64,000 bases of DNA from Candidatus Delongbacteria bacterium (GTDB taxonomy: Bacteria; CAIWAD01): positions 288,001 to 352,000 of the forward strand of contig OY760505.1 in the NCBI GenBank assembly GCA_963663545.1. The letters run 5' to 3'. Position numbers and translations under genes: made by a program. The notes under the pieces were generated by a model. The model ran no database searches. It saw only the letters and a program-made list of their open reading frames with translations, and had not been told where the DNA came from. This document shows, in pieces, positions 17,780 to 35,843 of this stretch. Positions within the stretch are counted from its first letter, which is position 1; the number at the start of each line of letters is the position of its first letter.

Positions 17780-19128
17780 AATCGGTATCGGTGCCGACCC
17801 TGCGGGTCGGATCGCTATCGGTATCGAGGCATTGCCGTGCAGCCAGCCGTATGTATCCTATGGACGAAGGCGTGCTACTCTGTGGAACGACGCTGACAGC
17901 TGAGTTCATTTGCACGACTTCGTCGAGGTCACGTGCGCAGCGCGTGACACGCCTAGCGGCGGGGCTCTCGTCTGCGACGCAGCGAAAGAGCACCGCCGAC
18001 GCGGTGCAGGACCTACTTTTCTTTGTCGCAACAAAGAAAAGTAGGGCAAAAGAAAATGCTCGGGCTCTCCGACCCGAGGACGCTTGTCCGCTGGACAACC
18101 GCCGCGGGCGGGTACCATATGCTTGCAGCAGGGCTACGCTCATGTGTTCACACCTTCGGTGTTCACTTATGGCCTTACGGCCATTTGGGTGTGTCTGCTA
18201 TAGGGATGAGTGGCTGTATGGTTGAAGAATCGGGGCCGATTCTTCAGCCTCTTCTGACGGGAAGCCCAGTGTACACTATGGACGAAGACCCGCAATTTAG
18301 CGGAGTTGCAAATACGGTCGCACGAGATGCGGGGCTTCGTCGAGGTGCTGACCGCATAGCGGGCAGCACACCTGTATGGCTGAAGAATCGGCAGCCGATT
18401 CTTCGGCTTCTCTTCGACAGGAAGCCATTGTACACTGTGGGCGAAGACGTGCAGTTTCGTAGCGATGAGATTGCAGCAATTCATGATGCACGGGTTCGCC
18501 GAGGTGTTTTGCGAAGCAAAACACACGCGGGCGGGCACCATTTGATGGCTGAGGGGCTACGCTCATGTGTTCACAACGTAGGGCAGAATTCGCAAAGCGG
18601 ATTCTGCGAGCGACTTGACCCGAAGCAAAGCTAAGGGGCAAGTCGACGTTCACCTCTGGCCTAACGGCCATCTGGGTGAGCTGGCTTAGGGGTAGAGTGG
18701 CTGTATGGCTGAAGAATCGGCAGCCGATTCTTCGCCTTCTCTTCGACAGGAAGCCATTGTACACTGTGGGCGAAGACGTGCAGTTTCGTAGCGATGAGAT
18801 TGCAGCAATTCATGATGCACTGGTTCGCCGAGGTGTTTTGCGAAGCAAAACACACGCGGGCGGGTACCATTTATTGGCTTCTGGGCTACGCTCATTTGTT
18901 CACACCTTCGGTGTTCACTCTTGGCCTAACGGCCATCTGGGTGAGCTGGCTTAGGGGTAGAGTGGCTGTATGGCTGAAGAATCGGCAGCCGATTCTTCGG
19001 CTTCTCTTCGACAGCAATCATTGAAGGCCAGGAGGAGATTTCTCGCGAATTCGCAGAGCGGCGCAAGCGGCTCAAACTGAATGCGAGGAATCTCCGAGGT
19101 GTCGAGCACGTCGTGCTCGACACACGAG
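17780..19128. repeat. Left palindrome-rich repeat mosaic (REP/MITE-like), inverted relative to 29975-30790
   Basis: GAAGAATCGGCAGCCGATTCTTC-type palindromes at 18224, 18382, 18711 and 18976; internal direct repeats (18373-18570 vs 18702-18900); no credible protein. Confidence 0.85.
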
Positions 19129-19129
19129 T

Positions 19130-19534
19130 TCAATGCTTGAGCAGTTGCTTCAAATCGATGGTGCTTGCAGGGAAAGCGGCAAGCAGACCTTTGTCGGACG
19201 TGAAGAGGGGCACTTCCAGGCGCCGGGCCAGGGTAAGAAACTCGCAGTCGTAGGCCGGGCACGCGGATTCGTCGACACAGGAAAGCACATCAGCCGAGGC
19301 AGGCTCGTACTCCCCGCCGCTCATCAGTTCTTCCGCCTCCGTCATGAGTTGCAGAGCGGCACTTCTGCTTAGCTGACCGCCGCGCATGTACTGCGCAAGT
19401 ACGTTGCGGAACTCGCTGCGCCACAGCAGGGGAGCAAGCCAGTGGGAATCGCGCATGAACAGGGCTTCCGCATGAGGTGTGTACTCGCCCTCAATCAGCA
19501 GATAGGCAATCACATTGGTGTCCACGACAATCAT
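19130..19534 (-). CDS. vapC: Type II TA toxin, VapC/PIN family
   Basis: MIVVDTNV...E...AYDC...TSD acidic PIN motifs; start overlaps the antitoxin stop. Confidence 0.92.
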   Translation of the reverse strand: MIVVDTNVIAYLLIEGEYTPHAEALFMRDSHWLAPLLWRSEFRNVLAQYMRGGQLSRSAALQLMTEAEELMSGGEYEPASADVLSCVDESACPAYDCEFLTLARRLEVPLFTSDKGLLAAFPASTIDLKQLLKH

Positions 19535-19773
19535 GAGCGCCCCTGCGTACGCGCCTGGTCCAGTAGCTCCTGGGTCAATGCGGGCAGTTTGCGCCGACTA
19601 CGAGCGGCCGCCAGACGCTCGAGCAGCTCGTGCCTGCCCGAGGGACACGACCCCAGCGATGTGCTCAAGCGGTATAAGATTTCTCCTGCAATGCTGCGGT
19701 AGTTGGCTTGGGCACTGAATCTGATCCTCTCATACAAATCGTCGGGAATGTTCTTCAAGGTGATGGCTGGCAT
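19531..19773 (-). CDS. Antitoxin, Arc/FitA-like ribbon-helix-helix protein
   Basis: MPAITLKNIPDDLYERIRFSAQANYRSIAGEI RHH pattern; 80 aa; directly upstream of the PIN gene. Confidence 0.88.
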   Translation of the reverse strand: MPAITLKNIPDDLYERIRFSAQANYRSIAGEILYRLSTSLGSCPSGRHELLERLAAARSRRKLPALTQELLDQARTQGRS

Positions 19774-19785
19774 AGACGGCCTCGT

Positions 19786-19813
19786 GGTTCCATTTCGGTT
19801 GTGATTCGGAACC
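19786..19813. promoter_or_regulatory. Probable TA autoregulatory operator
   Basis: Inverted repeat GGTTCC-N16-GGAACC just upstream of the antitoxin start. Confidence 0.5.
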
Positions 19814-20048
19814 TAGTTTCAGCCTTGCACAAACACAAGCTACTTCCGCCTTGCTGGATTCCCTCCAGTATTTGGTCCTGAGGAAGGGGACGAGATCGTG
19901 GTGTCAGCGAACCTGCACACTTTTCTGCTCTCGTTCACCTGTTCTTTCTCATGACACGAGCGGGGCAATGGATCGGTATCTCTTTCGGCAGTGGTTTCGA
20001 CTTCCCGGAACACGTGGTCTACCGGCAATTTGGAGAAGTTGGCCGTTG

Positions 20049-20448
20049 TCAAAGCTGCGCCAGCCATTGTTTAACCAAACTTTGGATATACTCGCACTTT
20101 GCGACTGCATCCGAGTCAGACGCAAACGAAATGATGCAGCGATCCTTCGCTACCCACTTCACTAAACCCAAAACCCAGCGAATCATCCAACTGGAATTGC
20201 ACTGAATTGTCCTTGGTCTTTGCACCTCTATGAAGGATGAGCTGGAACATAGCGCCTGGATGGATCCGAAACGTTGCAAAGTGATCATCAAGGTAGAAGC
20301 TTGGAGCATTCCATTTCACTTCTTCTTGAATTCTCGTGTCTATGCCAAGAACTGCAATGCGTAGTGCTTCAATGCCCTTCTTGTACGGGTGCTGCAAGGC
20401 TACAAGGAATTCTTCAACTGACGAGGATTCTGACTTCTTCTTTGCCAT
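20049..20448 (-). pseudogene. DUF1801 (YdhG-like) protein, frameshifted
   Basis: EEVKWNAPSF motif; removing one copy of the 7-bp duplication AAACCCA (20164-20177) restores ...DDSLGLVKWVAKDRCIISF...VKQWLAQL. Confidence 0.8.
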
Positions 20449-20468
20449 CGATCATCTCATGTGTTGTT

Positions 20469-20700
20469 GGCTAACGTCGGCTTCTGCGGCACACGGCTAG
20501 TGGGTGTCGACTCGAAGCGAGTCGGGCGACGCTTGCGTCGCAAGATCTACGGGTTCGCGAAGCGAACCGGCTTTCGCTGAACCGTAACTTATGCATGCTC
20601 ACCTTCTTTGCCTTGGAGCGCCAAGGAAACCGCTACTTGTCGATAGTTCCGGAATTGTAGCGTAATTTCGCTTATAGCCAAGAAAAACAGTGTGGCTGCC
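20469..20700 (-). other. Degenerate, long attC-like site
   Basis: GTTAGCC core at 20469-20475 precedes the DUF1801 gene; several internal hairpins; no intact R'' end found. Confidence 0.5.
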
Positions 20701-20703
20701 TGC

Positions 20704-22977
20704 TCAGTCGAAAGATGCATGAACTCTGAAAAACTGCCGGGGCCACGTGTGGGAATCTAAACTGAAAGTTGTATCGGCTGTAACTTCAGCTAGCAAGCCC
20801 CATTCCTCAAAAGGAGCATATGAATCAACGGAGCTATAGATTTTATAGCCTGCGGCATACTGAACTGGATGCCAAGAGATTCTTAGACCAGTTGAGTCCT
20901 GCGAGGTGAAACTAAGTGTCGGGGCGTCTGAAAGCGAGTGTGGAAAAATCTCATCATGTAACTCGTTCAACCATGGCGTGAAATTACAGCTTCCGGAAAA
21001 GAGGTGAATCCCATCTGCAATGGAGGATGAATCCGTTGTGCCCCAATACATGAAGCCGAGATCCAGCTCAGCGGCATTGTTGTGGTAAACATTAAAGAGC
21101 CCGTTTGAATGAATATCGTTCCATTCAGAAACCGCTCCACCACCGTTCAACCCGCTGCTCTCGTTGTACAAATAGACACCATGAGTGCCATTATCAACTA
21201 TGTAACAGTTTATCAATGTCGGAGTGGAGTTTGGCCCCACATAGATCCCCGCTGTCTCGCTGTATCTGACTAAGCAGTTTGCGAAAGTGACTTCGTGGGA
21301 AGTTGACAGTCGGACACAACCAGTCGAAGAACCCGCATATTCAATTACACAGTCGGAACATCTGCAAGTTGACATCCCAAATGAATTATTAAACTGGATA
21401 CCCTTCCAATCACCGGGAGCAGGCGTTTCGCTATTTGAAGTGAAAACTATTGGTTCAAACTCGCTACCAATTGCCAGTAATGATCCCTGAGCATTTAAAA
21501 GATAATCGCCATTGAACCTAAGTGTGCACCCGGGCGCAATCTCCAGACTATCACCCGCCTGAACAAGTAAATCATCATCAATGATGTATGGAACATTGTA
21601 GTTATTCCAATATCCGCGACAACCATCTCCTTCGACTACTAGAATACCCTGAAAGGCATTATCATGCAAATTGAGCGGACCTGTGATGTTTGAAACACTT
21701 ACAGCCTCTAAAATTATCGGATAATCATCACAGTCCATGATTTCGCAATTATTCATTTCGACTTCGCAATCTATACCCAAACATATACCTGGACCAGAGC
21801 ATTCGCCTATTACACAATCATCGAAACATGCACGCGAGCTACTTATTGAAAACCCTCCGTACAAAGAAAACTGAATGTTGGAATTGCTAATGTTAACATT
21901 GCCCTGGGAAACTCTGACTGATCCGTTGGAGCTTGAACCGGCGTAGAAAATATCACAGAAGTTTAACCTTGAATCCCGTGAACCTGGATTGAAGGTAAAA
22001 CCGGCCCAATCACCTGCCGCTGGTGATTCATTATCAGAAGTGAAAGTAATCCTGGCTTCAGGTGTGCCTTCCGCAATTAGGGTTCCCGCAACGTTGACTG
22101 AAGCCGGATTAGTTGATACACCAGAAAGCCGTATGATATTGCCTGGATCAATTATTAATGTATCACCTCCTGCAATGCTAACAGATGCGTTTTGTATAAC
22201 ATACGGAACGCCAAAACTTGCCCAGCGCCCCTCAGTTAAACCATTTGCAGTAACAAGGATTGCATCTGTTGCATTTCCATAGATTTCCATGTCTCCGGTA
22301 ATTTCATTCACTCCAGATGCTGATGTCTCAATAGGGTACCCGCCGTTGTTGATAATGGTGCAGTCATTTATGTATGGTTCGGAATAGTAAACGCTTGTAC
22401 CTCTACAGATAACGCCGCCTGCTGCATTATTCCGTATCACGCAGTTCGTAATGGATGCATTATGGACTGTACTAGGCGTGCCGGTGTGAGCCGCGATTTG
22501 TATTCCATATGATGATGAATGCTGAATCGTGCTGTTGGCAATGAGTTTGTTGTCATCGTCGCCGATAACATAGATACCGCTACTCCCAGCATAAGAAATG
22601 TCGCAATAGTCGAATATCACACTATCTGAAGTTGTAGAGTAGAAGCCATTCCAATCTCCAGGATTTGGATTGGGAGAACTGGAGGTGAAGATAATCCGCT
22701 GAGTTAGAGTTCCGATTGCCTGAAGTGACCCGTGTATATAGACTGTTATCCTAAATTGTGCCTCAGCATCAAACTGAACATAGCATCCTGGTAAAATGAT
22801 CAGCGTTGCTCCCGTTCCGATCGTTAATCCTGCCCAGACAACATGTGGATTATCAGCTGGCGACCACACCTCATCCTCAAACAAATGACCGGAATGATAG
22901 GTTTGGGCCGATAGTGTAAGAGGCAAGAAAAGCAGACTCAGTATAACAACTAATTGCTGGACACAAATGCGATTCAT
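20704..22977 (-). CDS. Secreted right-handed parallel beta-helix repeat protein with FN3-like C-terminal tail
   Basis: Signal peptide after a GGAG RBS; three I(I/T/V)FTS....P.(P/A)GDW.G repeats; N/G/I-rich beta-helix turns; AT-rich. Confidence 0.8.
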   Translation of the reverse strand: MNRICVQQLVVILSLLFLPLTLSAQTYHSGHLFEDEVWSPADNPHVVWAGLTIGTGATLIILPGCYVQFDAEAQFRITVYIHGSLQAIGTLTQRIIFTSSSPNPNPGDWNGFYSTTSDSVIFDYCDISYAGSSGIYVIGDDDNKLIANSTIQHSSSYGIQIAAHTGTPSTVHNASITNCVIRNNAAGGVICRGTSVYYSEPYINDCTIINNGGYPIETSASGVNEITGDMEIYGNATDAILVTANGLTEGRWASFGVPYVIQNASVSIAGGDTLIIDPGNIIRLSGVSTNPASVNVAGTLIAEGTPEARITFTSDNESPAAGDWAGFTFNPGSRDSRLNFCDIFYAGSSSNGSVRVSQGNVNISNSNIQFSLYGGFSISSSRACFDDCVIGECSGPGICLGIDCEVEMNNCEIMDCDDYPIILEAVSVSNITGPLNLHDNAFQGILVVEGDGCRGYWNNYNVPYIIDDDLLVQAGDSLEIAPGCTLRFNGDYLLNAQGSLLAIGSEFEPIVFTSNSETPAPGDWKGIQFNNSFGMSTCRCSDCVIEYAGSSTGCVRLSTSHEVTFANCLVRYSETAGIYVGPNSTPTLINCYIVDNGTHGVYLYNESSGLNGGGAVSEWNDIHSNGLFNVYHNNAAELDLGFMYWGTTDSSSIADGIHLFSGSCNFTPWLNELHDEIFPHSLSDAPTLSFTSQDSTGLRISWHPVQYAAGYKIYSSVDSYAPFEEWGLLAEVTADTTFSLDSHTWPRQFFRVHASFD

Positions 22978-23172
22978 TTGGACACTCCCTGAGATAGACG
23001 AAAATTGAGAACACTGCAATTCCCAGACCTACGCCATCTCCATATGAATAACAATTGTTTACTGCCGTAATCTGTTTAATTGGAAGACCCAAAATGTACA
23101 TTTTCGTTCACCGTATATAGGTATGTAAATGATATTTCACTGGTATTCTTTGATTGCGGATTCTGCTTCTCT

Positions 23173-23247
23173 GCCTAACGGCGAGCATGAACCGCGTCGT
23201 GAAGGCCGTCGGCGGCCTTCACGTCGCGTTCCATGCTCTTGTTAGCT
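23173..23247 (-). other. attC site
   Basis: Minus strand AGCTAAC-aagagcatggaacgcgacgtgaaggcc...ggccttcacgacgcggttcatgctcgcc-GTTAGGC; the upstream gene's TAA lies in R''. Confidence 0.92.
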
Positions 23248-25305
23248 GTCCGTCTTCTTCTCCGCAATTGCACATAGCCAAGGAATGCTCTTACTTCCTC
23301 TCTCCTCAATCTCTCGCGCTATCTTCCTGACGAGGAACCCGTTCCTCTCAAGCACTCCAGTGAGAGAGCCGAAAGTATGAAATTGAAAAAAGCGTCCGCC
23401 GAGCCCCTCTTCAGTATCAAGAAAAGACAGACCATCTCCCTCTTTCGTCATCACAAAAAGGAGTCCGTGCGGTCGAAGAACGCGGTTGGATTCCGCCAAA
23501 GCTGCATCAGCCATAACTCCTTTTGCGATCACAGGCAAATGAAGAAGGGAAGCATTCTGCCTAACGACATCGAATGACTCCCCCTCGAAGTGGGAAAGAT
23601 CACGCATGTCGCATTCGACCACGCTTCCGTCAGTAAGAATACCAACTTGGATTTTATCCTCAATCATCCTGACAAAGGCAGGGCACTTCTCGATTCCCAC
23701 TGCGTCGATCTTTAACACGTTTTGAGCGTAATCGAGATCGCGACCGTTACCCGTCGCCACGTCAAGGATCCGGGGGCGTTCGAGCCCAAGGGCAGAGGCA
23801 CAGTGCGACAACATTTCACGCCACAGCCTCTTGTCCAAATCGTGAGGCTCCGTCCAGCGTATCTCCGCGTAACGATTAGCTCCGCAATCGTATGTTGATA
23901 CTGTCAGGTCAATCAATCGCTCTGCAAGAGCTACTGCGGCGCTCTGCGCGGCATGCCTGTCAGCGGGGTGACATTCGGTTATGCCTTGCAGAAGGTTCGC
24001 GAGTTCCGCTGTCATGTCATAACCAGATGTCATGTTTCGTCTCCTTATTGTATCCATGATCGTAGATGTCGTGTGTTCTCTTCCGTCGACTTCCGGTGTC
24101 TCCCGGAAAAGCCCCCAATATGCGCACTCCCTGGGACCCAATTTGAACAGGACGGGTGGTGACTCTCGGGCACTCAGCCCCGAGATCCGCTCACTCATTG
24201 TGCGGGCCACAACAAAAGCGTTGTATAGCGGAATATCCAGGATTCCGTGTACTAGCTCAAACGCACGGCATCCCTTAATCAAGGCGAGGTCAGCGAGGCG
24301 CACGAGGCCGCGCACCTCTGGCGATAGCTTGGTCCAGTTCAGGGCGGCCAGCGAAGGACCACTGGCAGTCCAAAAGAAGCGACCAGTGGCCGACAAGCCC
24401 CGCAGTTCACGGTATGGCGGAAGATGGAGAATCTGCAGTAGCTGCTGCAAACTGAGGTCATTACCATATTCTGCCCTTTTCGGCACCACGCACACGCTGG
24501 TGTGCCTCGCGTGACGGAGAAGCTCTTGGACAACCAGCAAGTCGAAGAACGACTCTATCACATCATCGGTGAACCACAGCACCAGTGCGGAGTGACCGAA
24601 GTCCTCAACAAACGCCTCAAACTCGAAGAGTGGTGTTGGGTGCAGGGCGCGTGATATGAGCTGTTCCAGGTAGCGCTCCGCGTCCTCGTCCGTGAGAGGT
24701 CTACCAACGTAGTCGGCGAGTGGTATGCCCACATCGCGAACAGTGGAGGCCGCGCTCGAGGCTCCCTTTAGATCGAGGCCAGAACACCCTGCTGCAATAG
24801 CCAATCGAACGAACTCCGAAAGGTCATGTTGGCCCGCCTCGCGCAATCGAAGAACGACGCGCGGAAGCAAGTCAAAGGCAAGGCGGTTGAACTCCGCATG
24901 GGAAGGCTTGGTCTCGTAGCCGTCGCGTAGAGCTGTGGCCCGCACAACCCGGCAGACTACATCCGGAATCTCTTGATTCCAGAGGGAGCGCGCGAGGATC
25001 CTTCCCCGGTGGGACAGGGCCAGAAACCGCTTCAGTTCGGCTATGCACGCGTCGGATAGGCGATGTGTCTCTTTCGAGCCGATCCCAGGGATGCACCGGT
25101 TGATGTACTCAAGTACTTGATCGCGGATCCAGTCGTCGGCGGATGGCTCACTGTCACCAAGCTCGACGAGATGTGTGCGCCGGTCATGGAGAGTAAAGGA
25201 CATGGGCAAGACTTCCGCGCTATAGCTTCCAACCTCACTAACGTCGAAGAAAGGGAAGTCATCACCCAGGAGATCCGCGAGTTCATCCATTGTCTTGATC
25301 CCCAT
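23242..25305 (-). CDS. Fusion of a DUF89/ARMT1-like metal-dependent phosphatase domain and a class I SAM methyltransferase
   Basis: WFTDDVIESFFD, YGND and ADLALIKGCRAFE resemble DUF89 motifs; C-terminal ILDVATGNGRD, CDMRDL, NASLLHLP are MTase motifs. Confidence 0.7.
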   Translation of the reverse strand: MGIKTMDELADLLGDDFPFFDVSEVGSYSAEVLPMSFTLHDRRTHLVELGDSEPSADDWIRDQVLEYINRCIPGIGSKETHRLSDACIAELKRFLALSHRGRILARSLWNQEIPDVVCRVVRATALRDGYETKPSHAEFNRLAFDLLPRVVLRLREAGQHDLSEFVRLAIAAGCSGLDLKGASSAASTVRDVGIPLADYVGRPLTDEDAERYLEQLISRALHPTPLFEFEAFVEDFGHSALVLWFTDDVIESFFDLLVVQELLRHARHTSVCVVPKRAEYGNDLSLQQLLQILHLPPYRELRGLSATGRFFWTASGPSLAALNWTKLSPEVRGLVRLADLALIKGCRAFELVHGILDIPLYNAFVVARTMSERISGLSARESPPVLFKLGPRECAYWGLFRETPEVDGREHTTSTIMDTIRRRNMTSGYDMTAELANLLQGITECHPADRHAAQSAAVALAERLIDLTVSTYDCGANRYAEIRWTEPHDLDKRLWREMLSHCASALGLERPRILDVATGNGRDLDYAQNVLKIDAVGIEKCPAFVRMIEDKIQVGILTDGSVVECDMRDLSHFEGESFDVVRQNASLLHLPVIAKGVMADAALAESNRVLRPHGLLFVMTKEGDGLSFLDTEEGLGGRFFQFHTFGSLTGVLERNGFLVRKIAREIEERGSKSIPWLCAIAEKKTDS

Positions 25306-26131
25306 CGTCCTTCATCTGATCACCATTGCCTTGATCCCACAGGTGGTCGAAATACGTGTTCAGCTTCGCGTATCCATGAGATCCCTTTCGAAAGACGATC
25401 ATCGGCAACCTCACTGGTGCGTCGCAGGAGAGGATGTTCGGCGAGAAGTAGCACCTATCGCTGAAAATGATGCATGTGCAGTACGGAGCTTGCATGTAGA
25501 AGCGATGGCTTATGGGGTGTTTGGAGAATGTCCGGTTCAAGTTGCCGATAGAGGCGACGGTGCTCTGTATGTCGATTGCGATTAGGGGCTCCTTCTCAAA
25601 CTCAGGGGTCTCAATTCTGGCCCGGTTGGTGGTCTCTGGCGCTTCTGGATGGGACAAGAGTGCCTTGACTGACACTGCTCCCGTCTCCTCGCTGAGTGAA
25701 CATATCTTGTAGATTGATCTGTAAAATGGGCCTGTTTGATTGAAGAAAACCCGAAGGGAAACTCCCACAAGCTTCACCTCGCCAGTAGTTGCATTGTCGA
25801 ATGCCGATTTAAGCGATATGAACGCGTTGTCAGGATACTCGTTCTGTTCGCGATCCTTGTAGACCCGGATGATGCCACCCTCCGCCAAATCCCGGAAAGC
25901 GGTCCAAATCGTGTCGGCGTCCTCCCGCTGCTTCACATGGTCGTAGAAGAAGCCCACCAAGAGGGGAAAGAGGATGCATGATCCCACCTGCGCGACAAGA
26001 AGAAGGACAATGGCCTTGAGAAGGCTTACGCTTGTCAACTGAGTGTTGAAGAGGGGGATCAGTAGGGAGATCGAGACGAGAAGGGATGAAACGGTTACCC
26101 AGAAGATGAACCAGTATCGCGTTTGCTTCAT
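25283..26131 (-). CDS. Two-TM membrane protein with DUF5919-like (PLD-like fold) cytoplasmic domain
   Basis: True start MKQTRYW at 26131 (the longer ORF runs through attC); two hydrophobic helices; VKLVGVSL, LLSHPEA...RARIE, FDHLWD patterns; overlaps the next gene. Confidence 0.6.
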   Translation of the reverse strand: MKQTRYWFIFWVTVSSLLVSISLLIPLFNTQLTSVSLLKAIVLLLVAQVGSCILFPLLVGFFYDHVKQREDADTIWTAFRDLAEGGIIRVYKDREQNEYPDNAFISLKSAFDNATTGEVKLVGVSLRVFFNQTGPFYRSIYKICSLSEETGAVSVKALLSHPEAPETTNRARIETPEFEKEPLIAIDIQSTVASIGNLNRTFSKHPISHRFYMQAPYCTCIIFSDRCYFSPNILSCDAPVRLPMIVFRKGSHGYAKLNTYFDHLWDQGNGDQMKDDGDQDNG

Positions 26132-26146
26132 TGTATGTTTCCCCAC

Positions 26147-26274
26147 AGCTAACGTGGTGTCCAGTGGGTGGGCGTCGAATCGCGACAGCCGACCAGAGAA
26201 CGAAATTTGTTGAGTGAAGACAGTGGTTAACAAAGGCGCGCTGTCGCCTGATCCACTGCAACACATGGTTAGCC
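26147..26274 (-). other. attC site
   Basis: Minus strand GGCTAAC-catgtgttgcagtgg...ccactggacaccac-GTTAGCT, 128 bp, with inner gcgacagc/gctgtcgc stem. Confidence 0.88.
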
Positions 26275-26275
26275 A

Positions 26276-26929
26276 TCATGCAGAAGGCAAAGTAAGTTTG
26301 TTAAGCTTTTCTACAAACGAGGAGGCTGAAGACCAGAAGAAGTCAGCGACTTCGTCAGCGAAATAATGCCAATTACTTCCCTCCTCTATGTGTCTTGATT
26401 CTAGAAGACCTTTCTTCAACAGGAAGTCCTCGACCTTTTTGTAGCCGCCGGAAAACTCTTCTTCCCAGAAGCCCCCAACGGCTGGTGGAAAGCACAGTTT
26501 ATAGCCAACCGCCCGACCGTGAGCAATGACATTCCTGAAATAGAACAACGTCTTTACGTTTTCCCAAAGCGCTGGATCACCGATGGTTTCGCTGGCTTTT
26601 TTTCCAACAACTAGCGAAAAGACTTCATCGTAGTTTTCGCTTCCGGTTGTTTTGGCAACGCGAAGACGAAGATCGTCTATAAGGCGCTTGTATAGAGGTA
26701 GAGAGTGTTCGCCACCTGTATTGATGTTCTTAATCAGGATGCGTTCGAAGTTGCCTTCGATAAAGTATGCAGAAGCAAGAATGATGGAATAGTTTATTCC
26801 CGATCGGATCGCCTCCGAGAGGTCTGGAGATGTTCTTTGCGTCGTTTGCCATTCAATCCACGGTGGGATGCACTCGAAGACATGAAAAGATTCGTGCGCT
26901 ACCGACCAGTTGCTAGGAGTAGATGCCAT
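26276..26929 (-). CDS. Hypothetical cassette protein with HEPN-like R-x4-H motif
   Basis: Helical protein with YFIEG...FRNVIAHG; sole gene between two attC sites. Confidence 0.6.
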   Translation of the reverse strand: MASTPSNWSVAHESFHVFECIPPWIEWQTTQRTSPDLSEAIRSGINYSIILASAYFIEGNFERILIKNINTGGEHSLPLYKRLIDDLRLRVAKTTGSENYDEVFSLVVGKKASETIGDPALWENVKTLFYFRNVIAHGRAVGYKLCFPPAVGGFWEEEFSGGYKKVEDFLLKKGLLESRHIEEGSNWHYFADEVADFFWSSASSFVEKLNKLTLPSA

Positions 26930-26942
26930 GATTCCCTCTAAG

Positions 26943-27005
26943 GGCTAACGCTGCTTTTCAGCGGGCGCAGGCTTTTTGCGATCCTCTGCAAAAGCCTTGT
27001 TAGAT
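26943..27005 (-). other. attC site
   Basis: Minus strand ATCTAAC-aaggcttttgcag...ctgaaaagcagc-GTTAGCC, 63 bp. Confidence 0.92.
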
Positions 27006-27008
27006 TTA

Positions 27009-28394
27009 TCATCTCCTAATTTCCCGTATTATCCCTGGTATGTCTGAATGTTCGTTAACCCAAATCACAGAAACACCGAGTTTATTGAATGTTGACTCCT
27101 CTAACCCTCTAAACACGTTAGATATCTTATTTATGTCTCCAATATTTTTCAGACTTTTATTAGGTTTCCAGTGGTCTTTTAGGATTGCGTAATGGCGTAC
27201 CCCAGGTCTCTTTCTATGAGATATCTCCAATAATCTGCGTAAATTTGGATCGGTCATGCTTAAGCCCACAAAAAGACAAACATTATTTCTGAGTAAATTC
27301 AATTGTGTAATGTTTGTCCAGGCGTAAGGATCATTAAACTGAGAATGGTATGCCTCTTCACTTAATACCAATGATTCTCGGTATTTAGTGTTCAATTTCC
27401 CCTTAAAGGGAAGAAAACCATGGGGATGGAATACAGGTAGCTCGTTTTTAGATGGAATATCACCTTCAGAAACAATTACATAATAATCAACAGACCTCTT
27501 CTGCAGTTCAATTTCTAAAATTTCATCGTAGTTGTATGTTACTAACCCGACCAAGCCTTGGCGCTTTCTTCCTGGCACACACAAAGCGCCAATCTCTTCG
27601 ACTAATTCAGAGCTTTTTGTGGAATCAAAATTTAAATAAAGACTTCTTCTAACATACTCTGGAAAATTATTGCCCAAGCTGTCTCTCAAAATTCTAGCAG
27701 TTATCAAAGGGGATGCAGGAATTTCAGATTTGAAATAATTCACTAAAGAGCCTTTGCTACTCTTTAAACTTTTGAACGCAGGGTTTTTTCCAACAAGTGA
27801 TATAGATAAACTATTTAGCAGACTTTCCCATGATGGGAGCCCCGATGCCAATGATATTCCGGCACCAAGAAATAAAACTAATTGGTCCTCAAGATATGCA
27901 GACTTAAGTGAAGCTAAGTTCTGTTTTGTAATTGCATTTACATCTCGGTCCTCAAATATCTCTACTGCTTGGTTTAAATATTTTCTATCGTAAGTGAATG
28001 CGGCTTCAGGATTTTGCGAGGATAATCGCTCTACCTCTTCTTTTCCGTAGATTTCTATGACATTATTAGGAAACCGATCATGCAAATTGGCTTTTAATTT
28101 ATTCAGGCGAGAGGAACTCTGATTTGTAACTAAAAGGATGCTTGCAAAATTATAGTTGGTTCTAAATGACCTGTCTATTACTTTTCTCAAGCTTTCCCAT
28201 GATGCTAAATACTTAATCTCAATTACACATGGCCCCGGCAAATTTAAAATTCCGTCTGGTGCGATTGCATTGAACCCATAGTCCGAACCTGTTTCAGGGC
28301 CGGCGAGAAGTATCTTATTTTCTTTTCGGGATACTGCCCTAAGTATATTAAGAACATAACTTTCAAATTGGAAAGCGTGCAAAATATCTTGCAT
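27009..28394 (-). CDS. SIR2-family (SIR2_2-like) protein with N-terminal restriction-endonuclease-like domain
   Basis: LFLGAGIS..SGLPSW, TYNYD, HPHG, FVGLSMTDPN; N-terminal VIEIK; start moved downstream of attC (RBS GAGGTG). Confidence 0.85.
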   Translation of the reverse strand: MQDILHAFQFESYVLNILRAVSRKENKILLAGPETGSDYGFNAIAPDGILNLPGPCVIEIKYLASWESLRKVIDRSFRTNYNFASILLVTNQSSSRLNKLKANLHDRFPNNVIEIYGKEEVERLSSQNPEAAFTYDRKYLNQAVEIFEDRDVNAITKQNLASLKSAYLEDQLVLFLGAGISLASGLPSWESLLNSLSISLVGKNPAFKSLKSSKGSLVNYFKSEIPASPLITARILRDSLGNNFPEYVRRSLYLNFDSTKSSELVEEIGALCVPGRKRQGLVGLVTYNYDEILEIELQKRSVDYYVIVSEGDIPSKNELPVFHPHGFLPFKGKLNTKYRESLVLSEEAYHSQFNDPYAWTNITQLNLLRNNVCLFVGLSMTDPNLRRLLEISHRKRPGVRHYAILKDHWKPNKSLKNIGDINKISNVFRGLEESTFNKLGVSVIWVNEHSDIPGIIREIRR

Positions 28395-28420
28395 TCCTAT
28401 CACCTCTATCATTTCACGAA

Positions 28421-28506
28421 ATCTAACGTTTGGGCTCAGGGGCGTCAAAAAGCGGAGCGAGGAACGAGCGCAGCTTTTTGACGTCCCTTTGAGCCCATTG
28501 TTATGC
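28421..28506 (-). other. attC site
   Basis: Minus strand GCATAAC-aatgggctcaaagggacgtcaaaaagc...gctttttgacgcccctgagcccaaac-GTTAGAT; the upstream gene's TAA lies in R''. Confidence 0.93.
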
Positions 28507-29427
28507 AAATTCTATTTCTTGGTGTCGTTTTAGCCAGCTTATAATCTCTGTTTGATCTCGAAGGTCTAGGCGCCATTGATGGTGCTCCTTTGCTTGTTGC
28601 TGAGCTGCCGAAGTGAAGCGACTGGTAGTTGCAATCATTCCCATAGTTGCCCTGAACTCTTCATTTACCCAATACATTACATTTCTTACTATCGATATAT
28701 CCACGGGATTACTTTGTGAGTGTCTTTTGCACTCCACGATTAATTTCACCGGTACACCCTCAATAAACTTGGACGATACAGCAATTATATCAGGACCTGG
28801 TGCATTGTTTCGTTTTACTAAATCAACAGCCCATCCATCTGCTTTAAGCAATTCGGCCACCATATTCTCAAAATCGCGTGGTGATACTATTTCCAACTCT
28901 TCAGGGTGCTCAATTAAATATTTAATATCCTTTTTTGTAATTTTAGACAGGAGTATTACAGAAGTTTCATCTCCTTCAAAAGCAGGCTCTTTTATATGCT
29001 TTAGTGCGAGGATTACTTGCTTTTTGAACTCAGCCTTGCTGTCGTAGCTGCTAATAACTCTTGACTCGGCAATCTTACCAAGTAGCGCACCGTAACTTGG
29101 ACGGTTATCTATTGCGTGCTTCGTAGATATTAAACCAGAGCGCCGTATAAAAAAGAAAACAGGCTTCCCAAAACTTTCCGCCAATTGAGTTTCAAATATA
29201 ACTCCAGGAACATTAACGTCATGTACCATCGTCCCCATTCTTGTTCCCAGAATGGTTAACACCGCGTCACATTGTTGAATAGAGCGGTTTAGGATTTCTT
29301 GAACAGTGAGTGTGGTAGCTGGAAAATATTCCCACATTACCGGAATGTGGCCAGCCGATAATATCGCATCTCTTGCGATTTCCCGTTCTTCCGCCATTTC
29401 AGACGTAGAACTGATGAAGATTCTCAT
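28501..29427 (-). CDS. DUF4062 domain + Mrr-like restriction endonuclease
   Basis: MRIFISST..MAEER...WEYFPA (DUF4062); SPRDFENMVAELL...PDIIA...VECKRH...TTSRFT (Mrr_cat PD-(D/E)xK). Confidence 0.85.
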   Translation of the reverse strand: MRIFISSTSEMAEEREIARDAILSAGHIPVMWEYFPATTLTVQEILNRSIQQCDAVLTILGTRMGTMVHDVNVPGVIFETQLAESFGKPVFFFIRRSGLISTKHAIDNRPSYGALLGKIAESRVISSYDSKAEFKKQVILALKHIKEPAFEGDETSVILLSKITKKDIKYLIEHPEELEIVSPRDFENMVAELLKADGWAVDLVKRNNAPGPDIIAVSSKFIEGVPVKLIVECKRHSQSNPVDISIVRNVMYWVNEEFRATMGMIATTSRFTSAAQQQAKEHHQWRLDLRDQTEIISWLKRHQEIEFA

Positions 29428-29450
29428 TCCATTTCGGCTCTGGTTTTCAT

Positions 29451-29510
29451 GCATAACATCTGATTCTACGGACCGTATAAGAACAGCCCTTGTGCCTTAT
29501 GCGGGTCCTG
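29451..29510 (-). other. First recombination core of the array (attI or eroded attC)
   Basis: GTTATGC core at 29451-29457 complements R'' of the first cassette; only a short residual hairpin upstream. Confidence 0.55.
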
Positions 29511-29974
29511 ATAAGTACGACAACCACATTGCTGCTTCTCTGTGCTTCCCATCCAATGTGTCCCTGAGAGTAGATATTCGGAGTAGGCAAAACAAGAGAA
29601 ATCACGGCTTTGTCCAGAATACATATCACCCGAAGTCGGCCCTGCAGCCTTCTCCAGGAATCTGTTTGCCTGCCCTACATAATCTCTTATCCCGACACAG
29701 AACGCGTACTTATCTGGGCAGACTTATCCTGACAGAGCCAGAGCTCCCGCCCTCCCTCCACGCCACCAGCCAATGACCATTTTCAGATTTCTGCATTCGT
29801 ACAGAAAGCAAGCCATTCATGTGCGTGCTGAGGGACATCGGGCCTTCCCTGTCATTGGGACGCGCACTCGACACCGTCGACTAGACTTCGGACCTCGCAC
29901 ATCGTCTAGTCGTTCGACGAAGCCGTGCTTCAGGTCTTTGCCATCTGCGCCTCGCTGCGAATATGCACGGCTTC

Positions 29975-30790
29975 AGTCCGTGTGTGTCCCGCGCTTTCAC
30001 GCGTGACTCCTCGGAGACTTCTCGCATTCGGTTTGAGCCGCTTGCGCCGCTCTGCGAATTCGCGAGAAATCTCCTCCTGGCCTTCAACGATTGCTGTCGA
30101 AGAGAAGACGAAGAATCGGCTGCCGATTCTTCAGCCATGCAGCCATCCTACCCAACAGCAAGCCCACCGAAATGGCCGCAAGGCCAGAGGTGAACGTCGA
30201 CTTACCCCTTAGCTTTGCTTCGGGTCAAGTCGCTCGCAGAATCCGCTTTGCGAATTCTGCCCTTCGGCGTGAACCAATGAGCGCTGCCCTCCAGCCATCA
30301 AATGGTGCCCTGCCCGCGTGTGTTTTGCTTCGCAAAACACCTCGACGAAGCCCCGCGCAAAACGTACCCGTACATGAAACTCCAGCCAATTGCGGGTCTT
30401 CGTCCATAGGATACAATGGGTTCCTACCGATGAAAGGATGAGACATGTCCCCTGCAGCCAGCCGTCTGTGAACGTCGACTTTGCTCGCAAAGTCGATCCG
30501 TCGACTTTGCCAAGCAAAGTCGATCGTGAACTCGTTAGCGTATCCCAAGGCATCAGCCATGCCCGACCAGGCGTCCTCGACGAGTCGTCGAGGGCCTCTG
30601 GGCGGGCGAGCGTTTTCTTTGCGCCACTTTCTTTGACGCGACAAAGAAAGTGGCATCTTCTTCGCTTAGCGCCAGCGTAAGCCCCGCGCCAGCGGCAAAG
30701 AGAGGACATCAGCCGAAAGGCAGCGCCTCGATACCGATTCGACTCCGATAGGAGTCGGCACCGATCCCGATACCGATACCGACTCAAGAA
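29975..30790. repeat. Right palindrome-rich repeat mosaic, inverted copy of modules in 17780-19128
   Basis: 30000-30135 matches 18975-19110, 30180-30345 matches 18495-18660, 30605-30655 matches 18015-18062 and 30727-30780 matches 17780-17830, all as reverse complements. Confidence 0.85.
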
Positions 30791-30859
30791 AATGGTGCAG
30801 AAGGGGCGCCCATCCCCTTGCTTTTTGCCCAGCAAAACCTGTTCTTTTGTTCACCTTTT

Positions 30860-32089
30860 ATGAACGCCAACGACTCGACATTCTGGCTCCACCTGCGGCT
30901 GCCCGACTTCGCGGTGCAGGTCGAAGAGCAACTGAATCCGGCCCTGCGCCGGTGTCCCTTCGCCCTCTGCACCAGCCTGGACGGCCACGGTCGCGTGCTG
31001 GCGCTGAGTCCAGCGGTGGAGCTGCCCGGCTTTCGCAAGGGCCATTCGGTGGGCGAGCTGCGAAGGCGCAGCGGCGAGGTGGAATGCCTGCCCTTTCAGC
31101 CCGCGCGCCTGCGCGCGGTTCACACTCGAGTGCTGCAACTGCTGCAGGAGCGCGTGCCCGCGGTCAGCGCCAGCGGCAGCACCGGGTTCAGCATAGCCCT
31201 GGCGGGTTGCCGTCACCTCTTCGCCAGCGCCGGGGATCTGGGACTGGAACTGCGCTCGCTTCTTTCGTCACGCGAGGGACTGCACTCGGCCATCGGGCTG
31301 GCCTCCAGTGCCCTAGGTGCGAGGCTGATCGCGCGGCGCGCTGAGGCGGGCGAAATCTGCGCTCTGGAAGAGGAAGAAGTGCAGAAGCTGCTGGATTCCT
31401 TTCCGCTGACCTGGCTGCCGGGGGTGGGCGGCCTGCGCGAGGAGCTGGCGGAGCTGGGCCTGCACCTCATCGGCGACGCACGCCTGCTGGATCCGGCCTG
31501 GCTGCGCCGCGTCTGTGGCGACCGCGCCCGTCTGCTCCTGCGCTCCTTGGGCGAGCTGGAACCGGGCCCGCGCCTGCGTTCGCTGCAAGTGGCCCGCCTA
31601 CAGGTGAAGGACGCGCACAAGGCAGCGACACACAAAACGCCCCTGCGCGTGGAGCGTTCGTTGCCGGTGGCCCAGAGCGATCCGGGCGCTCTCTGGCAGG
31701 AGCTTTTCGGTCTGCTGGACGAGGCCGCCCAGCGGCTACATGCGCTGGATCTGGAAGCGCGTCGTCTGCTATTGGCGGTGGAATGGGACGATGGTCGCGT
31801 CCTGCTGCGAGGCGCACCTGTGCTGCGGGAGCCGGGCGATAGCGCGCTGGCCGCGTTGCGTCACTGCGGTCGCGGGCTGCTGAGTCGTGCGCTGGACAGT
31901 CGCCGTCTGCGGGTGCGCGCCCTCAAGGTGGAGTTGGGATCGCTTTCGCAAGCGCCCCACACCGTCGACCTGTTCGCGGCGGCACAGCAGGAAAAGCTGC
32001 AGCGGCTGGAGAGCTCCCTGGGCGGCATCCGCTCGCGCTACGGCGGCAGCAGCATCCGACGCGGTATCTGTGGCGGGGCGGAATCGTGA
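30860..32089 (+). CDS. imuB: ImuB-like catalytically inactive Y-family polymerase
   Basis: Y-family layout (NPALRRCP, SAIGLAS, PLTWLPGVG, C-terminal DLF...IRSRYG) without the catalytic D/DE residues; upstream of dnaE2. Confidence 0.8.
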   Translation: MNANDSTFWLHLRLPDFAVQVEEQLNPALRRCPFALCTSLDGHGRVLALSPAVELPGFRKGHSVGELRRRSGEVECLPFQPARLRAVHTRVLQLLQERVPAVSASGSTGFSIALAGCRHLFASAGDLGLELRSLLSSREGLHSAIGLASSALGARLIARRAEAGEICALEEEEVQKLLDSFPLTWLPGVGGLREELAELGLHLIGDARLLDPAWLRRVCGDRARLLLRSLGELEPGPRLRSLQVARLQVKDAHKAATHKTPLRVERSLPVAQSDPGALWQELFGLLDEAAQRLHALDLEARRLLLAVEWDDGRVLLRGAPVLREPGDSALAALRHCGRGLLSRALDSRRLRVRALKVELGSLSQAPHTVDLFAAAQQEKLQRLESSLGGIRSRYGGSSIRRGICGGAES

Positions 32090-32525
32090 GCGCGTGCAGC
32101 AAACGACCTCCTGAAGCGGAAAGGACGAAAGCTCCGGACCCGTGCTGTGAAGGCTCACCGCGAGTTGCAGAAGCGGCTTCTCCATGGGGCAGAGCGTGCC
32201 CGAGCTCTCACGAAGAGACGCTGCATCCGGCTGCTCACGAAGGCGCGTTGCGTTTGCCGGTGCTCAGGCTTCCCTTTCTGAGGCTTCTGCGTGATACAGA
32301 CAGGAGCGGGAAGGCGGATCGGCAATGAGAACCGCTGCACCAAGGCGTGTGTGCTCTGCGTGGAAGCCACGGCGAGTAGATCTGCCAAGGAGAGATCTGC
32401 GGCGTGACACGCCTAAGCGAGTGGATACTTCGCGGAGGAAGCGCCTGCAGATGTAGCATCGCAGACATAGCCTCCATGAACTTGTGTCCGCACGCCGTAT
32501 AAACCGGAAGGGAAGGTGATGGCCC

Positions 32526-35500: not shown

Positions 35501-35843
35501 ACCGCTGCCCATCGACGCGAACGACGATGCCCGTGCTCCAGCGCGTCTACCTACCGTCGCTGCGGCCCCAGTCTTAGCCGAATCCGCCCGGCGTCGCGAA
35601 GCCATGTCCTTCCTTTCTATGGAAGACCTGCAGGGCACCTGGGAGGCGGTGCTTTTTCCGCGCGTCTACGAACGCCATCAGCTCCTCTGCCGCGAACACG
35701 GTCCCTTTCTGTTGGAAGGCAAGGTCGAGTACGAGGCGGGCGAGGCCATGCTCATCGTCAGTGACATGCGCCGCATCGGGCGATTACGTCAACTCAACAG
35801 AACGCTGGCACATGGACAGGTTGAGGAATCTTTGACAACTTAG
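32526..35843 (+). CDS. dnaE2: Error-prone DNA polymerase III alpha (DnaE2/ImuC type)
   Basis: PHP HSHFSF, GRGSAANSLVAYCLG, FERFL...PPDIDLDF, KIDLL, GYAFCKAHSASF; next to imuB. Confidence 0.92.
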   Translation: MLLEAHSHFSFGEGCLSPLELAQAAAKAGHRSLGLCDNDGLYGMVEFYRAALAEGLKPVLGLRLSALAGALLLARGETGRRELCRLATLAQLGDESPWLRQSEDSLPKRGPGSPLDHASPWQRTRAEATGTAQQLREAIAELQDCELILPSLEALAALRELPGGLNPAWVSVGVHPVLGRQRANEVWSAARAAGLPCVPHLPVYHETPVDQELHRLLRAIATGDTLARARPVCASGHLVTPEELRRPFSTLPETLRRLDEMEERCRLELELGRLHMPDPELPAGVNATDVLWERCLRGLRQHYPAPGPDGLPVSQEEAALRLQREVRVIDAMHFSGYFLVVDEILDFARENGLPWVGRGSAANSLVAYCLGFTEVDPIRHKLYFERFLNPQRSSPPDIDLDFSWTDRDRVLANVYHRFGHERVAMICTTITFGPRAAVRETAKAMGIGGDGLKRLTDNLPHSARDLQEMLAEEGQPRLRARGLRPDLEPLASVLPFALRLMGRPRHLGIHAGGIVVSPDAVYERMPLQRASKGLCVTQLDMHPVEELGLVKIDLLAQRGLGVYSDLVRDLEQRGLPPVPFSVEELEADPAVQSMMAEGRSMGCFYIESPGMRALLRKLRCADFGTLVAASSIIRPGVSESGMMQAYIERHLDPAKAHYLHPRLQEVLADTYGVMVYQEDVIKVTHALAGMDLAEGDLLRRAMCGKSTEPGALARTRKRFLDGCRGNGIEDAIALEVWRQIRSFAGYAFCKAHSASFAVLSMRVAWIKVHHPAEFMAAVLSNQGGYYGCAAYVQEARRMGLRLLPPDVSHGDGVWKGSGNTLRVGLAQVGSLSSAALRRLLRERARAPWRGIRDLRRRTGLAQDELEALILCGACDSLGEPGEDSRHLRPRLLWAARLEQQTPADEGLLPLDDLPAVPSSLMLSGLELWQHERRLLGFGVHHHPLALYDFGELPAHCVDSRELRNRPAGTRVCMLGWNYSRKVILTRSKEQAQPLPIDANDDARAPARLPTVAAAPVLAESARRREAMSFLSMEDLQGTWEAVLFPRVYERHQLLCREHGPFLLEGKVEYEAGEAMLIVSDMRRIGRLRQLNRTLAHGQVEESLTT

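Follow-up and report, generated by a model that had tools for sequence, protein, structure and literature searches.

An attC recombination site runs from an R'' core ending in AAC to an R' core of the form GTTRRRY, the two lying 57–141 nt apart. Groups of attC sites without an integron integrase, known as CALINs, have been defined as at least two attC sites within 4 kb with no integrase gene (intI) nearby (within 4 kb, intI pseudogenes being sought within 10 kb; Cury 2016, PMC4889954). The cassettes of integrons and CALINs can form banks of anti-phage genes, including Mrr_cat fusions and HEPN-only proteins (Darracq 2024 preprint, 10.1101/2024.07.02.601686), and mobile integrons can likewise be anti-phage carriers (Kieffer preprint, 10.1101/2024.07.02.601719). 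Here, an array of this kind is described in a stretch of 64,000 nucleotides (the window) from a Candidatus Delongbacteria bacterium (GenBank assembly GCA_963663545.1, contig OY760505.1, positions 288,001–352,000). On the minus strand, window positions 29760 to 23173 very probably hold what remains of an integron platform. An attI site would head four cassettes inserted by the integrase IntI, each ending in a folded attC site, with intI itself deleted.

The element is a CALIN by definition, with four attC sites, a largest gap of 2.9 kb (26147 to 23247), and no intI in the window or in genome positions 305–322 kb. As in other CALINs, the array is small (83% of CALINs hold fewer than six sites; PMC4889954), its cassettes carry no detected antibiotic-resistance genes, and an intI is present elsewhere in the same replicon. 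By contrast, the window array keeps a recognizable attI and so shows where the integrase was removed; in that earlier survey attI could not be sought in most integrons, and intI pseudogenes were found near only 15 of 279 CALINs (Cury 2016, PMC4889954). Compared with a complete integron, an attI at the head is present (by paralogy) and an adjacent intI is absent. Nor is it a sedentary chromosomal integron, which would have more than 10–19 cassettes and homogeneous attC sites: here there are four sites of 63–128 nt with unlike stems. Class 1 mobile integrons share the attC architecture, and a covariance model trained mostly on their sites scores those of the window; however, integrase, Tn402-type context and resistance cargo are all missing from the window, and its attI is unrelated. 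The integron banks described by Darracq share the compact, single-gene candidate defence proteins, among them a Mrr_cat fusion and a HEPN-only protein, but comprise tens to hundreds of cassettes, whereas the window has four, with heterogeneous attC sites and in an uncultured, non-Vibrio host; in the main text of that preprint (10.1101/2024.07.02.601686), neither 'SIR2' nor 'DUF4062' appears. The kind of element, a CALIN with defence cargo, is already known; here it is found in an uncultured bacterium with several decayed platforms. The features are collected in Table 1.

Table 1. Features of the array and its borders (window coordinates; bits and E-values from the stand-in attC covariance model; z, DNA fold z-score).
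Feature	Positions	Strand	Description
attI-type site and former intI–attI intergenic region	29457..29760	-	crossover G at 29457; assigned by paralogy
Cassette 1	28427..29456 (1030 nt)	-	GC 0.42; open reading frame (ORF) 28501-29454, likely start 29427 (MRIF); DUF4062-Mrr_cat
attC 1	28421..28506 (86 nt)	-	GCATAAC...GTTAGAT; 34.8 bits, E 3e-6, rank 1; z -6.7
Cassette 2	26949..28426 (1478 nt)	-	GC 0.38; ORF 27009-28388; 459 aa; N-terminal D...ExK-like domain and SIR2_2
attC 2	26943..27005 (63 nt)	-	ATCTAAC...GTTAGCC; 26.7 bits, E 3e-4, rank 2; z -3.0
Cassette 3	26153..26948 (796 nt)	-	GC 0.48; ORF 26276-26929; 217-aa HEPN-type protein
attC 3	26147..26274 (128 nt)	-	GGCTAAC...GTTAGCT; 11.0 bits, E 1.7, rank 5; z -1.5; weakest site
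Cassette 4	23179..26152 (2974 nt)	-	GC 0.55; two overlapping genes, 25283-26131 and 23242-25305
attC 4	23173..23247 (75 nt)	-	AGCTAAC...GTTAGGC; 25.3 bits, E 6e-4, rank 3; z -6.5; last verified site
Foreign DNA after attC 4	20480..23178	-	GC 0.45; 3' border unsupported: no R'', no attC by the model
Secreted right-handed beta-helix gene	20704-22977	-	PF13229, 2.1e-26
R'-like core, DUF1801-like ORF and GGCCAAC	20038..20479	-	core 20479-20473, ORF 20116-20448; cassette status unsupported
RHH (ribbon-helix-helix) antitoxin	19531-19773	-	PF22513, 5.5e-7
PIN toxin	19130-19534	-	PF01850, 1.9e-6
Hairpin-rich composite repeat, left copy	17780..19103		inverted relative to 30005-30782
Hairpin-rich composite repeat, right copy	30005..30782		at the place expected for intI; no similarity to IntI at E<=10

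The attC sites had been proposed, as four palindromes, in a first-pass annotation made from the sequence alone, which had staked its reading on their being scored by an attC covariance model and on their bottom strands folding with extrahelical bases. A stand-in model was built from 11 plasmid attC sites beside annotated integrases (eight class 1 sites and three from a Kovacikia plasmid), with window sequence excluded. The training integrons, three of class 1 and one from a cyanobacterial plasmid, were reached in a plasmid collection with the IntI of a relative as query, and sites were taken from R'' to R' out of intergenic stretches 3' of cassette genes. The model has 17 pairs and two bulges on the 5' arm; its calibration was shortened, so its E-values are rough. 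A search of both strands of the 64 kb with filters off returned 10 matches at E ≤ 10, among which the four palindromes rank 1, 2, 3 and 5, all on the minus strand and with ends identical to those proposed, in agreement with direct reading of the letters. All four are thus recovered, three of them significantly (E ≤ 6e-4); the fourth, attC 3, is weak (E 1.7), and both its cores chain exactly with the neighbouring cores. The match at rank 4 (32883–32938; 17.9 bits, E 0.037) lies inside dnaE2, has no AAC/GTT ends and was taken as false. All four sites read nnnTAAC...GTTAGnn, in keeping with the R' and R'' consensus quoted by Nivina 2016 (PMC5027507), and their lengths (86, 63, 128 and 75 nt) are those of attC sites. 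In each, the R''–L'' arm exceeds its L'–R' partner by one or two bases; this is the arm on which extrahelical attC bases have been placed (Nivina 2016, PMC5027507) and on which the model, which puts all four sites on the minus strand, carries its bulges. On both of the counts named by the annotation, its reading therefore stands. Within attC 1, a promoter-like site (28448–28420; TTGACG, 17 nt, TAGATT) is directed into cassette 2, as a consensus match only.

That these palindromes are terminators or repetitive extragenic palindrome (REP)-like elements resembling attC by chance is extremely improbable. In favour of this reading, a crude scanner for AAC...GTT hairpins was unspecific, giving as many or more matches in a reversed-genome control as in the genome, and was used only to locate candidates. 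However, the covariance model finds the sites with exact ends and in one orientation, their cores chain exactly, homologous sites flank other genes in other samples, and the window array is the sole cluster of four such hairpins that the scanner located in the genome. The same scanner found no chained attC sites beside the intact intI of six relatives. At gathering scores, nothing in the window was matched by Rfam. A whole-genome search with the covariance model scored 150 of 484 candidates and missed attC 2, so it is no census.

Read on the minus strand from 29457 to 23173, the array consists of four same-strand gene blocks, each ending in an imperfect palindrome. As the first-pass annotation had stated, all four junction cores exactly complement the R'' of the cassette that they head: GTTATGC/GCATAAC (29457–29451 with 28506–28500), GTTAGAT/ATCTAAC, GTTAGCC/GGCTAAC and GTTAGCT/AGCTAAC. 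Only the three outer bases of each heptamer vary, and the chance of four exact matches is about (1/64)^4 = 6e-8. This chaining, held to be the mark of IntI-mediated insertion of circular cassettes, is exact in all four verified cassettes: each would have entered as a circle by recombination between the G and the TT of the core, a point of entry that would explain why the first six bases of the cassette pair with the R'' of its own attC. Chaining alone does not set the orientation of the array, because the pattern is symmetric under reverse complementation; the orientation follows from the asymmetry of the arms, from the covariance model, and from the genes, whose stop codons lie at or in R''.

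The same annotation had counted six cassettes, the sixth with a core pair one base off (GTTAGCC/GGCCAAC), and this count does not hold beyond the fourth. The R'' expected for a fifth cassette (GCCTAAC, with up to one mismatch) was not found in 19900–20720; the covariance model reaches at best 4.3 bits at the border core between the supposed cassettes 5 and 6 (GTTAGCC, 20479–20473) and finds nothing at 20038. In the window, heptamers that differ from GGCTAAC by at most one base turn up at 0.82 per kb on each strand, which puts the GGCCAAC at 20044–20038 at chance level. The array is therefore described as four verified cassettes, after which come 3.1 kb of foreign DNA (20038–23172) with decayed cassette borders. 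Between the beta-helix gene and the GTTAGCC core lies a 58-nt palindromic element (20520–20577), which recurs at genome 2634662–2634719 (93%) and in a relative (G002; 94%) and may have disrupted a fifth attC.

The head of the array, which lies beyond the range given in the first-pass annotation and is not mentioned there, was identified through its paralogues. Window positions 29453–29740 are 84% identical (over 288 nt) to genome positions 3401305–3401018, where the copy lies directly upstream of, and divergent from, a 5' intI fragment; two further copies, at 436 kb and 2257 kb, are 76% and 74% identical. In a four-way alignment, the copies agree up to ...AATCAGATGTTA (the homology ends with GATGTTA) and diverge right after GTTAnnC. 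Because the homology of the four copies stops at the GTT crossover, they would represent a conserved attI joined to differing first cassettes. At the 3401-kb and 2257-kb copies, the first site found downstream by the covariance model (28.5 and 26.5 bits) begins with GTATAAC, which exactly complements GTTATAC, the core at the junctions of those copies. Judged by this sequence paralogy, window 29457–29760 is an attI, and because the array has its own attI, ending at the crossover, it would be a platform that lost its integrase rather than an insertion at a secondary site. The sister platform at genome ~2257–2263 kb, which has the window's attI type and two to three attC sites, carries cassettes for AbiTii (4.8e-48), a DUF4365-TPR protein, a nucleoside deoxyribosyltransferase-like protein, GNAT and Hypoth_Ymh.

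No integrase lies beyond 29457, in agreement with the first-pass annotation: the ORFs beyond attI are identified by Pfam as imuB (30818–32089) and dnaE2 (32526–35843), a genome search with TIGR02249 gave no match in the window, and tblastn with the IntI of relatives (two queries, E ≤ 10) found nothing in genome 305–322 kb. An intI that once lay divergently beyond attI would have been deleted, and a dispersed hairpin-rich repeat now stands in its place. Directly beyond this repeat is the imuB–dnaE2 error-prone polymerase pair (30818–35843). The search elsewhere in the genome that the annotation had suggested returned one full-length intI and three 5' fragments. The former (genome 190146–191079) is 98 kb from the array; its first part alone scores 267 bits against a TIGR02249 cut-off of 265. 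The gene is split by one +1 shift into two frames, their overlap being a run of seven A, a position at which six relatives have no A-run. The split may reflect a sequencing error, an inactivated gene or a slippage switch. The array beside this gene (genome ~185–190 kb) has three sites by the covariance model (24.6, 12.5 and 23.5 bits) and encodes FGE-sulfatase-type, SEC-C-motif and beta-lactamase-fold (PF00144) proteins; its attI stretch shows no similarity to the window attI or to intI-adjacent DNA of relatives. The three fragments (3303715–3304125, 3255257–3255635 and 3400526–3401020) cover roughly residues 27–184, and each ends next to a copy of the dispersed repeat. Integron integrases are not rare in this sample: 13 of 31 sampled genomes, this one included, have one above the family cut-off, and the IntI of a relative (G001) is 55% identical to class 1 IntI1 and 58% to the integrase of the Kovacikia plasmid integron.

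The annotation had left it that IntI is either lost or acts in trans. The first part stands, in that intI is gone beyond a retained attI; for the second, the sole full-length candidate is the gene 98 kb away that is frameshifted as assembled. It is unlikely that the array is still an active part of a distributed integron served in trans by this gene, with the A7 run as an assembly error or a reversible slip. Apart from the one +1 shift, the gene has no defect: the second frame retains a whole C-terminal HxxR...H...Y box, and the gene lies above the TIGR02249 cut-off and has its own array of three attC sites. Integrases have also been argued to mobilize CALIN cassettes (Cury 2016, PMC4889954). 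However, the gene is broken as assembled, the A-run is absent from the six relatives, its attI region is unlike that of the window, and the array is unchanged in the contigs of two studies. This alternative concerns activity rather than identity and is compatible with the platform remnant. A bolder version is a long shot: a distributed, switchable integron in which an A7-gated intI serves three or more attI platforms that have no integrase of their own (those of the window, 2257 kb and 3401 kb) and act as separate defence-gene banks, and in which the repeat on the integrase side of seven platform copies is a working part that, for example, duplicates or inverts platforms.

The flanking composite repeat has modules of ~265–329 nt (for example GAAGAATCGGCAGCCGATTCTTC), and its two copies form inverted arms of 220 and 196 nt that are 88–89% complementary; Rfam gave no match at E ≤ 0.1 in the flanking repeat. 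By our reading of the blastn table, this composite family occurs at about twenty places in the genome. Each of the seven platform pieces that could be defined has a copy within ~600 nt on its integrase side; these pieces are the full-length intI, the three 5' fragments of intI, and three attI copies that stand without one, including that of the window. The repeat may have caused the intI deletions or may merely accumulate at such places. A composite transposon was considered and dropped, as among the repeat matches only the window has copies on both sides of an array.

These repeats bear on another alternative: that the array was split off an existing integron by inversion or translocation, or that its cassettes were inserted at a secondary site, both of which are listed as routes to CALINs (Cury 2016, PMC4889954). 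Inverted repeats of 200 nt from a dispersed family bracket the array and could mediate rearrangements, and a contig from one public run (X3) joins 18279 to 30596 on opposite strands (the side measuring 62 letters), a joint that could be a whole-array inversion or another copy of the repeat. Even so, this alternative is very unlikely: the array has its own attI ending at the crossover, which secondary-site insertion would lack, and the remaining genome copies of this attI type all lack a whole intI, leaving no intact partner from which to split. The RHH–PIN gene pair (19130..19773) adjoins the array and is not in cassette form (no attC by the covariance model).

The cargo of the first three cassettes consists of likely single-protein candidate anti-phage effectors, which, as their sequences suggest, would combine a TIR-like domain with a Mrr nuclease (cassette 1), a nuclease-like domain with a SIR2 NADase (cassette 2), and act as a HEPN RNase (cassette 3). 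In the cassette-1 protein, DUF4062 (TIR-like; PF13271, 1.4e-15) precedes Mrr_cat (PF04471, 1.1e-18; 67.8 bits against a cut-off of 21). S15, S16, E88, D222 and E241-C-K243 are invariant in 22 sequences, and the Mrr, or PD-(D/E)xK, catalytic motif D...(D/E)xK is present. PADLOC matches (PDC-S02, 1.9e-10; ZorD; type IV restriction models) cover the nuclease part only. Among 1580 scored candidates from a library of 5.8 billion proteins, 45 relatives (the protein itself included) were found at E ≤ 1e-5, nearly all on short metagenome contigs.

In cassette 2, the SIR2_2 domain (PF13289, 6.7e-17) matches PADLOC ThsA1 (2.9e-17) and, at domain level, LmuA and Dsr1. Across 29 sequences, G175, G177, S179, N286, H321 and H323 do not vary, and D288 is almost constant; the GAGxS, N, D and H positions of the ThsA, Dsr1 and LmuA effectors are thus kept. 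Unlike Thoeris ThsA, the protein has no SLOG/STALD domain and no ThsB partner, the cassette holding no second gene; unlike Dsr1, it has 459 rather than ~1260 aa and scores 27 bits against a cut-off of 1400. The N-terminal 160 residues match no Pfam family and contain a conserved D...IEIK pattern, which suggests a nuclease-like domain. Relatives number 668 at E ≤ 1e-5 among 7991 scored, some of which have a TIR domain in place of this N-terminal part. For cassettes 1 and 2 alike, close relatives were missed by single-protein scans and found by alignment-based ones.

None of the models in Pfam, NCBIfam and PADLOC matches the cassette-3 protein. All of 37 sequences keep R132-N-x-x-A-H137-G, which contains the R-x4-6-H pattern that HEPN proteins carry on a four-helix core. 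In a search of 48,161 Protein Data Bank (PDB) representatives, its AlphaFold2 (AF2) model (mean predicted confidence, pLDDT, 86) matched HEPN proteins best (Z 8.2–9.9, root mean squared deviation 3.0–4.2, 118–133 residues aligned), values to be taken with caution since Z is below 13 for helical proteins. Five of the ten best matches are titled HEPN, and the remaining five we take to be HEPN-fold proteins as well. Foldseek against the PDB gave no match at E ≤ 0.001 for this model, and a profile search of PDB sequences gave chance-level matches only. With members of the HEPN superfamily (HEPN-MNT, AbiV, AbiJ-type and RnlA-type), the protein shares the R-x4-H motif and the helical fold; by contrast, it has no MNT or antitoxin partner, no profile match, and an inserted beta-hairpin (residues 142–158). 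Motif and model together suggest a new HEPN family. Relatives are 83% identical in Janthinobacterium and 73% identical in Achromobacter xylosoxidans, bacteria of phyla distant from that of the present host, and lateral spread fits because identity is high across this distance.

Cassette 4 carries a different pair. The product of its first gene (25283–26131; AF2 model pLDDT 92) begins with two long helices (residues 2–28 and 37–68), whose hydrophobic sequence points to a membrane anchor; the rest has a phospholipase D (PLD)-type fold with matches to 54 PDB chains at Foldseek E ≤ 0.001, including Nuc (1byr, E 1.5e-5), PLD3, NucT and the restriction nucleases SauUSI and NgoAVII. In 36 sequences, only G123, L126 and R170 are invariant, no His or Lys column is invariant or nearly so, and the HxK(x)4D motif is absent; the protein is probably non-catalytic. 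There are 74 relatives among 1.84 billion representatives, and of 20 scanned, two are fused to TIR and one to a calcineurin-like phosphoesterase; the TIR fusions offer a possible lead towards conflict systems. The second gene (23242–25305) encodes an ARMT1-like domain and a class I methyltransferase (Pfam); an atlas search with this fusion returned generic methyltransferase clusters only, at 0.85. Beyond attC 4, the beta-helix protein, whose translation begins with an apparent signal peptide, and the DUF1801-like ORF, whose Pfam matches fall below the curated cut-off, are not defence-like. The description of the array as loaded with candidate defence genes thus applies to cassettes 1–3, by their domains, and not to these two genes. 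PADLOC, which the first-pass annotation had suggested for the cargo, gave domain-level matches for cassettes 1 and 2, none for cassette 3, and no complete known system.

A function of cassettes 1–3 other than anti-phage defence, as addiction or toxin modules or as DNA- or NAD-handling enzymes, is rather unlikely. The genes match no complete known defence system and have no partner genes, and HEPN, PIN and Mrr domains are also found in toxin–antitoxin and restriction contexts. However, catalytic motifs are conserved in all three, some SIR2-domain relatives carry TIR, and in Vibrio a defensive effect has been shown for Mrr_cat fusions and HEPN-only proteins encoded in integron cassettes (Darracq 2024, 10.1101/2024.07.02.601686). 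The sister array at 2257 kb, moreover, carries AbiTii, DUF4365-TPR and Hypoth_Ymh.

The array is foreign in composition. Cassettes 1–4 have a GC content of 0.42, 0.38, 0.48 and 0.55, against 0.567 for the genome, and GC falls from ~0.6 in the flanks to 0.37–0.57 inside the array; GTATCAC, a heptamer abundant in the genome, occurs three times in 20038–29457 against 12.5 expected from the genome rate. Relatives share the flanking genes without the array. Conversely, parts of the cassettes recur elsewhere in other company: near-copies of attC 2 with unlike flanks in four public runs, copies of attC 3 with unlike flanks in run X3, and an 84% copy of attC 2 in a distant genome (G013). A salt-marsh metagenome run in which only a tenth of the sampled words occur contains pieces of the SIR2 gene that are ~98% alike (4–5 differences in 217–295 nt). 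At eight metagenome loci with relatives of cassette 1, the covariance model gave 10 matches at E ≤ 0.1, all on the strand of the gene; a site ends 20–28 nt before the gene at four of the eight loci and starts 9–21 nt after it at two. Among 80 genome loci with SIR2 relatives, five have a site starting within 50 nt after the gene (default filters). These cassettes are part of a pool that is shared.

In its assembled form the array is frozen, which a homopolymer error or slip in intI would change. The contigs of one public run, probably the source run, cover 20541–29534 with 0 differences, and a run from another study has identical contig pieces over 19048–30060; where runs X1 and X5 leave stretches of the array uncovered, this was not counted as absence. 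A contig in run X4 that joins 20577 to 29450, skipping 8872 nt, was considered as an excision product and rejected: its shorter side has 27 letters, each of the two sides also recurs elsewhere, and the point of joining does not fall between G and TT. The joined form was not found in this genome and is read as another locus or organism. The cassettes would now be largely immobile, and further movement would need IntI in trans.

Several observations weigh against the reading of the array as a platform remnant with defence cargo. On the side of the recombination sites, attC 3 by itself scores below significance (11.0 bits, E 1.7), the stand-in model was trained on 11 sites and its calibration was cut short, and the fifth and sixth cassette borders are unsupported. 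The attI was assigned from paralogy and the junction pattern; it has no similarity to intI-adjacent DNA of relatives, and its stretch contains no sigma-70-type promoter, a consensus that may not be that of the host. The PADLOC matches are at domain level, with no complete known system. No excision, circle or variant array was seen, the contigs of two studies showing 0 differences.

With these points taken into account, a platform remnant is still very probably the identity of the array, which would then be a clean natural example of one origin of CALINs: attI and cassettes survive and the integrase has been cut out, in a genome that holds sister platforms at other stages of decay. It would add three or four compact candidate anti-phage genes, or gene pairs, namely a DUF4062-Mrr protein, a nuclease-like-SIR2 protein, a HEPN family, and the pair of a PLD-fold protein and an ARMT1-methyltransferase. 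The view of integrons as banks of defence genes would thereby take in an uncultured lineage where integron integrases are common.

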